This document shows positions 14,745 through 22,287 of a DNA stretch of 32,000 nucleotides, piece by piece. The first letter of the stretch is position 1. Each line of letters starts with the position of its first letter. The position numbers were made by a program, and so were the translations under genes. The notes under the pieces are model-generated. The model did not search any database. It worked only from the letters and a program-made list of their open reading frames with translations, and was not told the DNA's origin. This DNA is from Methylophaga frappieri (GTDB lineage Bacteria > Pseudomonadota > Gammaproteobacteria > Nitrosococcales > Methylophagaceae): NCBI RefSeq assembly GCF_000260965.1, contig NC_017856.1:2280001-2312000 (forward strand). Reading direction: 5' to 3'.

Positions 14745-17700
14745 ATGGCCTTAACTCAAACTCAAGTATCTGAGCTTTACGTCGCGATTTTTAATCGTGC
14801 ATCGGAAGGCGAAGGTAATGCCTTTTGGCAGACCTTTTCTGCCACAGATGATGTGTCAGAAGTTGCCAACATCATGCTGGGCACCACCGCTGCGCAAGAC
14901 TACTTTGGCAGTGCATTAGATAATGACCAGGATTTTGTTGAGTGGATTTACCAAAACACATTCAATAAAACCATTGCTGACGATCCAGACGGTATCGCTT
15001 TCTGGGTTCAAGAATTAGCGGATAATGGCGGCGACCGTGGTGCGGTTGTCGAAGCGATTATTTTCGCGGCTAAGCAACCTGAAAATGCCGGTCCTGCACA
15101 AGACCAGTTTTTAAACCGGGTTGCTGTGTCTAACTACGCAGCACAAAATCTGGATGAAGCACCTGCTGATCTGGGCTCACTGCGTTTTGATGACGAGCTG
15201 ATGGTATCAGACGACGATGCCACCGTAACTGCGGCACAAGATTCAATTGATGATCTGGCTGATGAAGAGCCTGTTGATCCAGGTGTGCCGGGTGATGAAT
15301 TCCTGCTGACGTCAGGTACCGATCGTTTTACTGGTACAGCCAATAACGACTTCTTTGATGCGCCAATCATGCAAAACCCATTTGCGGGTGGTGTATCTAA
15401 CTCACTGTCAACGGCTGACCGTTTAGACGGTGGTGCGGGTACCGACACGTTGTATGCTGAGTTGGTTTCTGAATTTGTTGGTACCGACACCAGCACTATC
15501 ACCGATGTTCAACCACGTACAACCAGCATTGAAATCGCTGAATTTGAAGCGTTGGATATGTCTGGCGAAGGTGAAAATACCGTTGTTGTTGATGCGTCTA
15601 AAATGCTGGGCGTTCAAAAAATCGGTTCTGCCTACTCAGACGGTGACTTGGTTATCGAAAACCTGACGACACTGGCTAACGATGGTTCGACCATCCGCAA
15701 CACGTCAGAAATGACCATCACCATGGATCACACTGACAACTTTAACTCTGATGAAGATGCATCAGACCTGACAGTTTTCTTTGATGAAGATTATCTGGTA
15801 ACAGGTCAGCAAACCTCAGGTGCGCAGTTATTGGTACGTTTGGTTAACGCGGTAGAAAACGAAGCCGGCCGTAACTCAGTTGAAAAATTCAACAACATCG
15901 AGTTTGCCGTTGGTGAAACAGTGGTAACCGTTGATATCTCAGCGATTGCTGCTGATGACACACTGGATTACACCACTGTTTACCAAGCGATCGTTGATGC
16001 GATTAATGCCCAGCTGGATGCCGACGGTTTCTCTGACGTATCTGCTGCCTTGGCGCCGGTTGAAAATGCGGTATTCTCAATCCCGGTTGCTGGCTTCCAA
16101 GCAGGCGACCCTGCAGGTCCTTACTTCCCGATCATCATTTCAAATGACGGTCCAGAGCCATTGACTGGCGTATCGATTGATACAGCAGAAGATGCCAGCG
16201 ACACTGACTTGAACAACTCGTTCTCGACATTTGATCCAACCACTGAGATCACACCGATTTCGGTTGATGTTGAGCTGCACAAAGTCGGTCAGGACGGTGA
16301 CGGTGGTAACCTAATCATTGGTGGTAAAGATCAAGACTCTATTGATGATGATGTTGACCAAAACGACGGTATTGAAGTATTCAATATCGAAGTATTGGGT
16401 AACGAAGATCGTCCATCGAACCTGGGTTACATCACATCAACCAATGGTGCGCTGCGTACCGTTAACATTGATTCAGAAACCCGTACAGATGATTCTTACG
16501 CGGCGCTGACTGTGCGTGGTTTATTGTCAAATGAACTGCAAGGTCAAAGTGCGTCTGCACCATTTGGCGGTACACTGACGAACCTGAATGCCAACACCTT
16601 CTTTGGTGATTTGTACATCGGTACCGTTTTTGCGGCACAGAACATTGATACGTTCAGCGCAACGGGTGGCGGCGATGTGTTCTACAACGCAGAGAAAGAT
16701 GATAACGGCGTATACACTTCAACCGTGACTGGTGCGGGTAGCGATACCATCATCTATGACATTGACGGTGACTCAGTCGATACCATTGGTGAAGGCTTTA
16801 TGGTCTCTACCGGTGCGAACGGTGATTCAATCGAAGTCACACTGGATAGCGGCGTATCCCAATCCACCATGTATCTGCTGGATAATCTGGATATCAGCAC
16901 CGGCAGTGGTGATGATTATGTCTTCGTCGGTGGTATTGCCAACGTTGATGTGATGGCGGGCAGCGGCAGTGATTTCGTTGAAATCGATACTGCGGGTGTA
17001 AGCGGTGTAACAGGTGGCAGCACAGGCACGTGGGAATTTGGTGATATCACTGGCCCACAAACCTTCGGTGATGCCTTCGGTCTGCAAGGTGGCGGTCGTG
17101 TCTTGTATCAAGCGCAACTGACGGCCATGTTTGCCGGCTTTGAAAGCACCGTTACTGTTGAAACCACTGCGGCCAACAACTATGTTGCCACGCAAATCGA
17201 TATCAACAATGCGATTGCTGATGCGATTGACAGTAACCCGGAACTGGCGCGTTTGCTTGAAGAAACGCTGGGCACCGGTCTGCAAACTATCAATGTTGCT
17301 TCGCTGGTAGAAGGTCTGAATGACTTTGCCATCAGCTTGTATCAGCCAACATTGGTCGATGCCGGTGCAGGTTCTGGTGCTAACGGTACAGCAGGTCCAG
17401 GTGAATTGACGGTGACTAACACTACTGTCTTGAATGATCTGGCTGAAGGTCTGATTGCAACGCAGCAAGAACCAAACTCTTCGTTGATGAGCGATGCCGA
17501 TGGTATCCGTACTCAATTTAACGAAGATGCCGGTTCACTGCTGCAAGACGGTTCAGTCGGTACCGGTGGTATCGCTGGTCTGGGTACCATTGCTTATGAT
17601 GGTGGCGAGATTGGTCGCGGTCTGTATGAGTATGAAGCGCCAAATGGCGGTGGCAGCGGTAATGGTGGCGACATCAACTACTCTGAAATTGACATGGGTA

Positions 17701-18452
17701 CGGGTGCCAATGACCTGCTGGTATTAAGCTCAGCTGATTTGAGTGCCAACACCATTCAGATCACCGACATCTTCGGTAAAGTGTCTGTCGTTAACTTCTT
17801 CGATAGTGGTGAAGATACATTCACTTATGAAGAAGACGATACGGTTGGTACTCAGTTGGCGGATGTCGGTATTCACCGTCTGGACTTCACCGCATACCTG
17901 ACCAATACCATGGATGAGTCTGACAATACACCGAATGACTTGTCTGAAATGCGTATTGCCACGGCGCTGGAAACCGACGTGACCGATCTGGGCGCGAACG
18001 AAGTCGCCGTTGTTGACTTCAACTTGGTTGACGGTTGGAATGGTGCGACAACGAACTTGTCATTCGCGACCCTGACTGCATCACAATTACTGGCAGAGAT
18101 GAATGCTGCTGGTGGTGCGGCTTCAGAAGGTGCGAAAACAGATCAAGTTCAGGATATCAACCAAACTATCGTCATGGTTGAAAACAACCGTAATGCAGGT
18201 GAGTACAAAGTATTCAGCGTTCAATCCGATGTGGATAACGCTGGTACAGATGGCTTCACCAGTGCAACACTGCTGGGTACGCTGGACTTCGGTTACAGCA
18301 TCAGCCGTGGTGAAACACCAACGGATGTTGATGAAACTGATGGTACTATCGTGACCAATGGTGACACGTTGAGTAACATCAACCTGACCGGTTCGGTGGA
18401 TTCAGATGCCCACTTTAACGATGTCTTTGGATTGACTTCGGTTGCTCCATAA
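14745..18452 (+). CDS. Large acidic secreted surface protein, candidate T1SS-dependent S-layer/surface-array protein (DUF4214-like N-terminus, degenerate RTX-type repeats)
   Basis: 1235 aa with a strong RBS (AGGAG). It has no Cys, no N-terminal signal peptide and very high D/E/T/G/N content. The N-terminal QVSELYVAIFNRASEGEGNAFW...FVEWIYQNTFNK..DPDGIAFWV resembles DUF4214 repeats. One canonical nonapeptide is present (GGAGTDTLY), along with degenerate ones (GAGSDTIIY, GSGDDYVFV, GSGSDFVEI). The gene is followed by a strong terminator. Confidence 0.8.
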   Translation: MALTQTQVSELYVAIFNRASEGEGNAFWQTFSATDDVSEVANIMLGTTAAQDYFGSALDNDQDFVEWIYQNTFNKTIADDPDGIAFWVQELADNGGDRGAVVEAIIFAAKQPENAGPAQDQFLNRVAVSNYAAQNLDEAPADLGSLRFDDELMVSDDDATVTAAQDSIDDLADEEPVDPGVPGDEFLLTSGTDRFTGTANNDFFDAPIMQNPFAGGVSNSLSTADRLDGGAGTDTLYAELVSEFVGTDTSTITDVQPRTTSIEIAEFEALDMSGEGENTVVVDASKMLGVQKIGSAYSDGDLVIENLTTLANDGSTIRNTSEMTITMDHTDNFNSDEDASDLTVFFDEDYLVTGQQTSGAQLLVRLVNAVENEAGRNSVEKFNNIEFAVGETVVTVDISAIAADDTLDYTTVYQAIVDAINAQLDADGFSDVSAALAPVENAVFSIPVAGFQAGDPAGPYFPIIISNDGPEPLTGVSIDTAEDASDTDLNNSFSTFDPTTEITPISVDVELHKVGQDGDGGNLIIGGKDQDSIDDDVDQNDGIEVFNIEVLGNEDRPSNLGYITSTNGALRTVNIDSETRTDDSYAALTVRGLLSNELQGQSASAPFGGTLTNLNANTFFGDLYIGTVFAAQNIDTFSATGGGDVFYNAEKDDNGVYTSTVTGAGSDTIIYDIDGDSVDTIGEGFMVSTGANGDSIEVTLDSGVSQSTMYLLDNLDISTGSGDDYVFVGGIANVDVMAGSGSDFVEIDTAGVSGVTGGSTGTWEFGDITGPQTFGDAFGLQGGGRVLYQAQLTAMFAGFESTVTVETTAANNYVATQIDINNAIADAIDSNPELARLLEETLGTGLQTINVASLVEGLNDFAISLYQPTLVDAGAGSGANGTAGPGELTVTNTTVLNDLAEGLIATQQEPNSSLMSDADGIRTQFNEDAGSLLQDGSVGTGGIAGLGTIAYDGGEIGRGLYEYEAPNGGGSGNGGDINYSEIDMGTGANDLLVLSSADLSANTIQITDIFGKVSVVNFFDSGEDTFTYEEDDTVGTQLADVGIHRLDFTAYLTNTMDESDNTPNDLSEMRIATALETDVTDLGANEVAVVDFNLVDGWNGATTNLSFATLTASQLLAEMNAAGGAASEGAKTDQVQDINQTIVMVENNRNAGEYKVFSVQSDVDNAGTDGFTSATLLGTLDFGYSISRGETPTDVDETDGTIVTNGDTLSNINLTGSVDSDAHFNDVFGLTSVAP
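14763..17228 (+). repeat. Direct repeat copy A (2466 bp): 5' two-thirds of the surface-protein gene
   Basis: Matches 18705-21171. The proteins are identical over residues 5-828. Spurious ORFs in other frames and on the opposite strand are duplicated verbatim in the track (15134..15502 equals 19076..19444; 15423..15617 equals 19365..19559; 16318..16509 equals 20261..20452). I found one substitution (16247 G vs 20190 A) and one 1-nt indel. Confidence 0.9.
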
Positions 18453-21600: not shown

Positions 21601-22287
21601 ATGGGTACCGGTACGAATGACTTGCTGGTTCTGGACTCAAATGATGAGAGTGCCAATACGCTGGTGATCAGTGATACTTTCGGTAAAGTATCGGTAGTCA
21701 ATTTCTTCGATGGTGCCTTCACTTACGATGCTAATTCAGTTGGTTCAGACTATGCTGATGTGGGTGTGCACCGTTTGGACTTCACCGCGTTTTTGACTAA
21801 CACATCAGATTCGTCAGCGAATACGCCGAATGATTTGTCAGAAGTGCGTATTGATACCACGCTGGATGCGGTCACTGACCTGGGTGCCAATGAAGTGGCG
21901 ATCATCAACTTTGCTACCGTTGATAACTATGACAGTACATTAGGTGACCAAAACTTCAGTTCACTGACCGGTTCACAATTGCTGTCACTGTTCAATGAAG
22001 CTGGTGATGCGGCATCTGAAGGTGCGAAAACTGATCAGGTAGGTGATACGAACCAATCTATCGTACTGGTTGAAAACAACCTGAACTCGGGTGAATACAA
22101 AGTATTCAGCGTCCAGTCTGACGTAGACAACGCTGGTACCGATGGCTTCACCGGTGCGACCTTGCTGGGAACCATTGACTTTGGTTACAGCCTGGAAGGT
22201 GGTAACACTGAACTGGGCAACATCAACCTGACTGGTTCAGCGGAGTCAACAACAGACTTTGAAGATATCTTTGGCTTAACGCCATGA
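18687..22287 (+). pseudogene. Second surface-protein paralog, reading frame broken by a 1-nt insertion (CC to CCC at 20061-20063); 1199 aa if repaired
   Basis: ORF 18687..20090 equals residues 1-457 of copy 1 (with T4S) and then runs into TGA. Homology continues in the +1 frame (ORF 19873..22287, homologous from ~20064). It has its own AGGAG RBS and terminator. The last 371 aa are homologous to copy 1 but clearly diverged. Confidence 0.8.
18705..21171 (+). repeat. Direct repeat copy B (2467 bp) of the surface-protein 5' block
   Basis: See copy A. The offset is 3942 bp before the extra C and 3943 bp after it. Confidence 0.9.

Follow-up and report, generated by a model that had tools for sequence, protein, structure and literature searches.

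Why should two neighbouring genes agree almost base for base over 2.47 kb and then, within a few codons, become strongly different from one another? This question is raised by a pair of tandem same-strand genes for large secreted proteins in Methylophaga frappieri (RefSeq contig NC_017856.1, forward-strand positions 2,280,001 to 2,312,000; this whole stretch of 32,000 nucleotides (nt) is referred to as the window, and all positions are counted from its first base). A preliminary description had tentatively read the pair as an expressed surface-protein gene followed by a silent cassette, and had proposed either ongoing gene conversion of the 5' block or strong diversification of the 3' part to account for the sharp boundary. 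Comparison of the two sequences, with each other and with their relatives, leads us to favour a recent gene conversion between old tandem paralogues encoding secreted surface proteins, with the upstream gene (copy 1) as the probable donor.

A near-identical tract between two old genes

Copy 1 (14745-18452) is an intact gene, encoding 1,235 amino acids (aa), that is supported by its open reading frame (ORF), by a match to the Pfam family PF13946, by an AlphaFold 2 model with a predicted local distance difference test (pLDDT) score of 87 and by an RNA-derived contig, L001. Copy 2 (18687-22287), also on the forward strand, is a broken paralogue, whose product would be 1,199 aa long without base 20061. 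BLASTN and global alignment showed positions 14744-17228 and 18686-21171 to be 99.76% identical. Within this region, the tract that runs from 14763 to 17228 in copy 1 and from 18705 to 21171 in copy 2 (2,466 nt, codons 7-828; 2,467 nt in copy 2, including the extra base) contains just one substitution and one indel, both of which sit centrally in the repeat. The substitution (G at 16247 in copy 1, A at 20190 in copy 2) is synonymous, while the indel is an extra C at 20061, so that the CC of copy 1 (16117-16118) is matched by CCC in copy 2 (20059-20061). These two differences had been described before; what had been overlooked is that the indel breaks the reading frame.

Both edges of the tract are sharp. 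At the 5' edge there are four differences over the first 18 nt of the ORF and then none. The onset of identity 18 nt into the ORFs (14763/18705) was borne out by the alignment, but the leading six codons differ at four bases (14750, 14754, 14756 and 14762), three synonymously and one non-synonymously, rather than at the three counted previously. At the 3' edge, the abrupt stop of identity at 17228/21171 was equally clear: the final 150 nt hold no differences, and the 30-nt bins that follow hold 11, 19 and 12. Beyond this point lie the 3' parts of copy 1 (17229-18452, 407 codons; 'cassette 1') and of copy 2 (21172-22287, 371 codons; 'cassette 2'), which share 63% amino-acid and 66% nucleotide identity, with indels. 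Their earlier description as homologous but diverged stands, although the count of 371 codons is valid only once base 20061 has been removed, and their alignment shows the expected convergence on a conserved C-terminal block, which in copy 1 is accompanied by a presumed uncleaved secretion signal. The longest exact identity between the copies 3' of the boundary is 17 nt. The boundary is not a domain border, a possibility that is ruled out by the position of residue 828 inside a helix (817-830), within a motif conserved across the family, in the AlphaFold 2 model and family alignment.

The sequences flanking the two genes were also compared. The upstream regions are largely unrelated: that of copy 2 (18546-18686), which has its own Shine-Dalgarno sequence, AGGAG, has in common with the copy 1 leader only a short motif, CACGCAC..TCCTATGRTRGRG. 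The 3' untranslated regions (UTRs), on the other hand, are homologous double hairpins, each composed of a stem-loop and a terminator around a CTGGCAACAG loop, in which compensatory changes keep the pairing. In copy 1 (18475-18545) the stem-loop lies at 18475-18496 and the intrinsic terminator at 18506-18537, followed by a U-run (folding energy -40.1 kcal/mol, z = -5.1); in copy 2 (22310-22382) the equivalent elements lie at 22310-22331 and 22340-22375, again with a U-run (-52.2 kcal/mol, z = -7.2). These homologous terminators agree with the proposal that the whole unit was duplicated, in an old duplication that extended from the ribosome-binding site (RBS) to the terminator. We found no further copies of the gene within the window, and no inverted repeats either in 13000-24000 or in the window as a whole. 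An Rfam scan of the window returned no matches, and a simple scan for promoters and terminators scored no more of them than in shuffled sequence and missed the evident terminators.

Synonymous divergence then separated the parts of the genes by age. Using the Nei-Gojobori method, we obtained a synonymous divergence (dS) of 0.0017 and a non-synonymous divergence (dN) of 0 for codons 7-828, while the 367 aligned codons of the 3' part gave a dS of 1.41 (proportion of synonymous differences pS = 0.64, near saturation), a dN of 0.30 and a dN/dS ratio of about 0.21. These values mark the genes as old paralogues and indicate long-standing purifying selection on their 3' parts. The step in synonymous divergence is present at both flanks of the tract (0.0017 versus 1.41 on the 3' side; four differences in 18 nt on the 5' side), and gene conversion is what characteristically leaves such a recent, near-identical tract with old sequence at either end. 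Of the two explanations offered earlier, conversion of the 5' block is thus supported by the contrast in dS (0.0017 versus about 1.4), whereas strong diversification of the 3' part is contradicted by purifying selection; accelerated diversification of this part is ruled out by its saturated synonymous sites and its dN/dS of about 0.21. A recent duplication of the whole gene, followed by replacement of the 3' part, would be less parsimonious, as age and divergence also mark the upstream region and the opening 18 nt of the ORF.

Probable direction of conversion and the state of each copy

The direction of the conversion is suggested by fragments from related strains, which were found by an exhaustive HMMER scan. 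One of these, L029 (JGI 3300037546; 2,023 nt), starts at the equivalent of 14579 and covers the leader of copy 1 together with the initial 1.85 kb of the gene proper, at 90.7% nucleotide identity. Another, L030 (JGI 3300037687; 3,238 nt), corresponds to 15160-18419 at 85% identity and continues past position 17228 to end in a 3' part of the cassette 1 type, to which the fragment L028 also belongs. When L030 was compared with copy 1 in 200-nt bins, identity ranged from 0.75 to 0.95 up to 17228 and from 0.81 to 0.87 beyond, and showed no step. The boundary therefore belongs to the intragenomic pair and not to the gene, and the tract of copy 1 is continuous by descent with cassette 1. On the simplest reading of this continuity, copy 1 would be the donor and copy 2 the recipient, which we consider most likely. 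A scan of genome contigs for other Methylophaga genomes found distant family members only. L029 and L030 also carry broken frames, at positions other than that of the copy 2 break: the frame of L029 shifts after ..DQNDGIEV, and that of L030 shifts near ..DADG/FSDVS and is interrupted by a TAA within ..NNYVAI*IDINN. These could reflect assembly noise or recurrent inactivation.

We propose that an ancient tandem same-strand duplication gave rise to two genes, each of which has its own RBS, start codon, upstream region and terminator, and that a recent non-reciprocal recombination then overwrote codons 7-828 of copy 2, most likely from the expressed copy 1. The old 3' thirds and the old 5' flanks would have escaped this event, and the position of the 3' edge was probably fixed by the divergence beyond it, which would block extension of the heteroduplex. 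The resulting 2.47-kb direct repeat is a substrate for RecA-dependent unequal crossover, which would either delete 3.94 kb and leave a hybrid gene or produce a triplication. The deletion had been foreseen as a fusion of the 5' end of copy 1 to the other 3' part, and its size comes out at 3,942-3,943 bp. Its product would place cassette 2 behind the leader of copy 1, and would keep the reading frame only with an exchange 3' of 16118/20061, unless the extra C is an error. RecA needs roughly 25 bp of identity in Escherichia coli. Exact identity 3' of the boundary, at 17 nt or less, is below this need, and exchange would therefore be one-sided and irreversible. The crossover-prone repeat is thus a by-product of conversion rather than a demonstrated programmed switch.

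The protein encoded by copy 1 is found, residue for residue, on two short contigs. L001 (IMG Ga0510010_000302) corresponds to window positions 14438-18515, and L002 (Logan, SRR15101633, read-derived) to 14618-18515. Both reproduce the two tract junctions of copy 1, so that independent support covers copy 1 only, and in both an A at 16247 is the sole difference from the window. The assemblies Ga0510006-Ga0510010 consist of Trinity contigs from Illumina RNA metatranscriptomes of the denitrifying biofilm of the Montreal Biodome, from which strain JAM7 originates (2025 PeerJ paper). L001 thus documents transcription of copy 1 in situ, which includes a leader of no less than 127-307 nt and continues as far as the terminator. 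The region upstream of the gene, including this long leader, spans 14206-14744; a CRP-like palindrome, TGTGACTGAATTCAC, at 14343-14357 and an extended -10-like sequence, TGcTATGAT, at 14548-14556 are candidate regulatory and promoter elements. The supplementary files of the metatranscriptome paper have no entry for the copy 1 gene, and a metagenome scan, evidently run without these metatranscriptome assemblies, returned one distant locus only. In the light of this evidence, copy 1 deserves its designation as the expressed copy. The label of silent cassette does not fit copy 2, which has its own start codon, Shine-Dalgarno sequence, upstream region and terminator, and which is disabled here because of the frameshift, perhaps itself a sequencing error, and not because of a cassette architecture.

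The extra C at 20061 splits copy 2 into ORFs at 18687-20090 (467 aa) and 19873-22287 (804 aa), the stop of the shifted frame lying at 20088-20090. The best database hit to copy 1, the M. frappieri protein P0001, annotated as a 'type I secretion target repeat protein' of 727 aa, is exactly the part of copy 2 that follows the frameshift. The window therefore represents M. frappieri JAM7 or a strain nearly identical to it, and the deposited genome annotation carries the same break. At the equivalent site L029, L030 and the RNA contigs all have CC rather than CCC. Copy 2 is accordingly either a very recent pseudogene or the victim of a homopolymer sequencing error, and the deposited genome may hold a repeat-associated error at 20061. 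The JAM7 genome, published in 2012, was presumably obtained by 454 pyrosequencing. According to a subsequent publication by the same group, JAM1, the companion genome, was pyrosequenced and then had to be resequenced 'to correct some discrepancies'. The run at the indel is merely CC or CCC, which rules out phase variation by slipped-strand mispairing. A +1 shift at CCC_TTA would exactly restore the reading frame of copy 1; programmed +1 ribosomal frameshifting at this site is nevertheless very unlikely, as TTA is a common leucine codon (17.7%) and the site lacks any obvious stimulatory element.

The protein family and its locus

The protein encoded by copy 1 has no cysteine and is strongly acidic (16.8% Asp plus Glu, 2.7% Lys plus Arg). 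Residues 60-106 match DUF4214 (PF13946; 26.7 and 30.0 bits against a gathering cutoff of 23.2). RTX repeats (PF00353) reached 19.5 bits, against a cutoff of 23, in the N-terminal ORF of copy 2 and gave no match in copy 1, while a profile search of PDB sequences returned a weak match to the Ca-binding solenoid of MpAFP, the Marinomonas antifreeze adhesin (3p4g, E = 1.7e-4). Homologues are numerous. A word-indexed search recovered more than 350 of about 1,100-1,900 aa, and the exhaustive HMMER scan yielded 461 representative clusters at 50% identity (E <= 1e-30). They come from marine Gamma- and Alphaproteobacteria, Desulfobacterota and Campylobacterota, and include members from Marinomonas, Halomonas, Marivita, Sulfitobacter, Oceanospirillum and Marinobacter as well as from Desulfobacter-like and Arcobacter-like bacteria.

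An AlphaFold 2 model of residues 1-1200, built from 86 sequences (pLDDT 87, predicted template-modelling score 0.76), consists of a helical domain (1-175) followed by beta-rich domains. In a Foldseek search of the PDB, the top five matches were all to RsaA, the surface-layer (S-layer) protein of Caulobacter crescentus (6z7p_A, E = 2.1e-6; 6p5t chains, E up to 2.2e-3), with template-modelling (TM) scores of 0.08-0.19 and a root-mean-square deviation of about 30 Å. From the protein and its surroundings we infer an RsaA-type, type-I-secreted surface layer associated with lipopolysaccharide (LPS), in which S-layer function and lattice are predicted and homology to RsaA is not established. Other results count against this part of our interpretation. 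The similarity to RsaA is weak, with global TM scores of 0.16-0.19; no sequence homology to RsaA was detected by phmmer or by a profile search of all PDB sequences; and the model of residues 1-185 (pLDDT 94) bears no likeness to the O-antigen-binding anchor domain of RsaA, its only matches being weak ones to phycobilisome linkers (E about 0.4, TM 0.3-0.4). An LPS-binding role for the N-terminus is accordingly putative.

The neighbourhood contains the components expected of an S-layer locus, in agreement with the preliminary description, which had taken the pair for surface-protein genes. At the start of the window (1-2843) lies a type I secretion system (T1SS), comprising the C-terminal end of an ATP-binding cassette (ABC) ATPase (1-177, frame 1), an HlyD-type adaptor (174-1523) and a TolC-type outer membrane channel (1536-2843), which were identified by TIGR01843 (377 bits), TIGR01844 (267 bits) and the Pfam families HlyD and OEP. 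This is followed at 2847-14205 by an O-polysaccharide or glycan block, recognised with Pfam and NCBIfam and also on the forward strand, which includes GT4 glycosyltransferases, two gmd genes for GDP-mannose 4,6-dehydratase, an acyltransferase, a short-chain dehydrogenase/reductase of the epimerase/reductase type, a methyltransferase (13213-14205) and, at 5108-7119, a Wzm/Wzt ABC-2 exporter with a Wzt_C domain. Downstream of copy 2 come a tetratricopeptide repeat (TPR) protein with a GT41 (O-GlcNAc-transferase-like) glycosyltransferase domain (22445-24391, forward strand; PF13844, 304 bits), a YceI gene, a 2-oxoglutarate (2OG)-Fe(II) oxygenase (25776-26447, forward strand; PF13640), a SapC-family protein (26478-27305, forward strand; PF07277, 201 bits) and another GT4 gene. 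Much of this arrangement is conserved: the membrane fusion protein (MFP)/ABC genes, Wzm/Wzt, gmd, methyltransferase and SapC recur around homologues in 20 other loci, MFP/ABC in 10 of them. SapC adjoins family members in at least six other loci (L004, L006, L007, L022, L026 and L027), and the oxygenase-SapC pair also lies 3' of a Marinomonas paralogue (L026, 13739-15610). A TPR-GT41 gene directly follows the surface-protein gene in Marivita geojedonensis as well (L005, 14000-15730; 38% aa identity), and the GT41 neighbour hints that the secreted protein may be glycosylated. Further downstream, at 28558-29766, is a gene for a predicted protein with a trypsin-like serine protease domain and a C-terminal Calx-beta domain. 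The last ORF (29922-32000), which runs off the window, includes a repeated 12-nt unit (30411-30746; about 28 copies) encoding (T/E)PEP-type Pro/Thr/Glu linker repeats, and the 692 aa present gave no Pfam match.

Tandem paralogues with traces of conversion were also found in other lineages. Sulfitobacter sediminilitoris (L013) has two same-strand paralogues, at 9031-12984 and 13979-18289, whose windowed dS is 0.01-0.10 over residues 1-600, 0.37 to more than 2 over residues 601-1120, and 0.014 over residues 1121-1220, a second tract near the C-terminus. In Marinomonas gallaica (L026), where the paralogues (472-6219 and 10001-13582) lie 3.8 kb apart, dS is 0.11-0.28 over residues 301-600 and saturated elsewhere, including residues 1-300. 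Patchy interparalogue conversion is thus common in the family. The stretch of about residues 300-600, converted in all three pairs, includes two of the family's most conserved 50-residue windows, which fits opportunistic conversion better than a design of constant anchor plus variable cassette. The two gmd genes of the present window (3960-5036 and 11212-12288) are themselves 98.96% identical over 1,153 nt (3886-5038 versus 11138-12290), with 12 mismatches, no gaps and sharp ends, and point likewise to opportunistic conversion.

A bolder proposal would make the DUF4214-headed family an unrecognised major class of RsaA-like S-layer proteins, in which the expressed copy repeatedly overwrites reserve paralogues in their N-terminal and central part, so that one crossover can swap the exposed C-terminal third. 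We regard this as a long shot. If true, it would give environmental bacteria a general recombination-based route by which to vary their surface under pressure from phages and grazers.

Weighing the alternatives against known systems

Several observations weigh against a recent conversion from copy 1 to copy 2. The allele of copy 2, A at 16247, occurs in a copy 1 context in both of the contigs derived from RNA or reads (position 1810 of L001 and 1630 of L002), which possibly reflects further conversion, a strain difference, reads mixed from both copies or an arbitrary phasing of the reference. The tract of copy 2 is attested by a single genome assembly. In addition, its true identity and phasing are uncertain because the differences lie centrally in the repeat, where short reads cannot be assigned to either copy. 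Finally, repeated homogenisation in both lineages would mimic the pattern on which the choice of donor is based. A rival proposal is that the near-identity, or the duplication itself, is the product of a repeat that was collapsed or copy-pasted during short-read assembly. A 2.47-kb repeat does exceed the read length of 454 or Illumina sequencing, its sole two differences lie in the centre where they cannot be phased, the 'copy 2' allele appears in RNA contigs of copy 1, and the sister genome of the same project needed correction with PacBio data. Against this, two distinct 5' and two distinct 3' junctions each run into unique sequence, those of copy 1 being found again in independent RNA assemblies; the coding sequence of cassette 2 is complete and under selection, and requires an N-terminal part; the terminators are homologous yet different; and other members of the family, in genomes assembled independently, also form tandem pairs that carry conversion tracts. 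We therefore consider an assembly artefact very improbable.

The two remaining alternatives differ in the role they give to copy 2. In one, the extra C is a sequencing error and both genes are functional, being used under different conditions from their own promoters in the manner of Bacillus anthracis sap and eag, while conversion preserves the identity of the region that has to match partners common to both (O-antigen, secretion or assembly). The separate upstream regions, RBSs and terminators are in keeping with this, as are the long-term purifying selection on both 3' parts (dN/dS about 0.21), the nature of the lesion (a CC-to-CCC length change in a probably pyrosequenced genome) and the presence of CC at that site in every other contig. 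On the other side, no product of copy 2 is on record, and no transcript or protein of cassette 2 was found, in searches with either 3' part that missed even P0001 and hence give no true negative; the break is kept in the deposited annotation; and loss of function of a family member arises readily in culture (Halomonas, seven of eight lines; PMC11970703), so that a real frameshift is plausible. Such a division of labour seems rather unlikely to us. In the other alternative, the locus is a device for programmed surface variation, in which expression takes place from copy 1 while copy 2 is kept as a reserve cassette, and RecA swaps the exposed C-terminal third to allow escape from phages, predators or antibodies, as for the sapA homologues of Campylobacter fetus. 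Surface-layer genes are classic targets of such systems. In the present case the 5' block is conserved while the 3' parts are divergent, SapC and a T1SS lie in the locus, copy 1 is demonstrably transcribed, and the paralogue pairs of three distant lineages have all been homogenised in their N-terminal or central part. However, the window holds only two copies, on the same strand and without inverted repeats; crossover would irreversibly delete cassette 1; two-sided exchange has no substrate in the 17 nt or less of identity 3' of the boundary; copy 2, unlike a promoterless fragment, forms a full gene unit; selection on the 3' parts is purifying and not diversifying; the N-terminal 300 residues of the Marinomonas pair are not homogenised, the tracts looking opportunistic; and no recombinant was found in the databases searched, although the search was weak. 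A programmed cassette switch has no positive support, and we judge this alternative improbable.

Recent conversion between old paralogues thus remains our preferred explanation, and it makes the locus a clean, sequence-datable example, from an environmental methylotroph, of conversion between paralogous surface-protein genes, with one copy expressed in situ. S-layers form the outermost surface of many bacteria and a main interface with phages and predators, and their genes and variation are poorly known outside a few models. The locus also flags a large unnamed family, for which the neighbourhood (T1SS, O-antigen, SapC, 2OG oxygenase and GT41 genes) and the predicted fold point to an RsaA-like surface layer in numerous marine lineages. 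This family, with its conserved neighbourhood, is a more interesting lead than the conversion itself, which is a fairly ordinary example. Should recombinants exist in populations, the pair would be a simple model of how a surface can vary with no recombinase dedicated to the task; otherwise it is textbook concerted evolution.

How, then, does the pair relate to systems that are already known? RsaA is not known to occur in more than one copy. The protein described here resembles it in being large, acidic, cysteine-free and beta-rich with a helical N-terminal domain, and its locus resembles that of RsaA (rsaA-rsaD-rsaE, rsaF and O-antigen genes) in its adjoining T1SS and genes for a GDP-mannose-derived O-antigen (Wzm/Wzt). 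It differs in lacking detectable sequence homology, in its DUF4214 or phycobilisome-linker-like N-terminal domain and in comprising two tandem paralogues. A lattice is at most predicted here, which counts against the S-layer interpretation. In C. fetus, seven to nine homologues are served by a single promoter on an invertible segment and share a conserved block of about 600 bp that includes upstream sequence, and switching is reversible. The likeness to this sap system (sapA/sapB, sapCDEF), which had been pointed out in the preliminary description, holds in part: both have homologues with a conserved 5' part and a differing remainder, type I secretion and a SapC-family gene, and in both recombination between the conserved parts is the expected route. 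It fails in the architecture, since M. frappieri has two same-strand copies without inverted repeats, with identity that begins 18 nt inside the ORF and extends over 2.47 kb, with 17 nt at most of exact identity 3' of it and with flanking signals of their own, so that a crossover would be a one-way deletion.

The sap and eag genes of B. anthracis are adjacent same-strand S-layer genes with their own promoters, a shared N-terminal anchoring part and a different remainder. They have in common with the present pair the arrangement of two adjacent same-strand genes that share an N-terminal part, but they rely on Gram-positive S-layer homology (SLH) anchoring and Sec export and have no near-identical block of DNA; their switching is transcriptional and has been shown experimentally, whereas any switching of the present pair would be hypothetical. 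A putative relative, to judge from its description, is the Halomonas protein Halo4214, a DUF4214 protein of 1,038 aa whose N-terminus was modelled on RsaA and which acquired independent loss-of-function mutations in seven of eight laboratory-evolved lines (PMC11970703). It apparently belongs to the same family, a Halomonas member (P0024) being among the homologues, and its inactivations parallel the frameshift of copy 2 and the broken frames of L029 and L030. The authors' proposal that Halo4214 is an anchored lipase (PMC11970703) marks a difference, as nothing at the present locus supports such a role. The closest match is with interparalogue gene conversion and concerted evolution as seen in tufA/tufB and rRNA operons, where old paralogues likewise share a tract of near-zero dS with sharp edges, and where tracts favour the more conserved part of the gene. 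From these cases the M. frappieri pair does not differ in any essential respect, its only particular feature being the type of gene involved.

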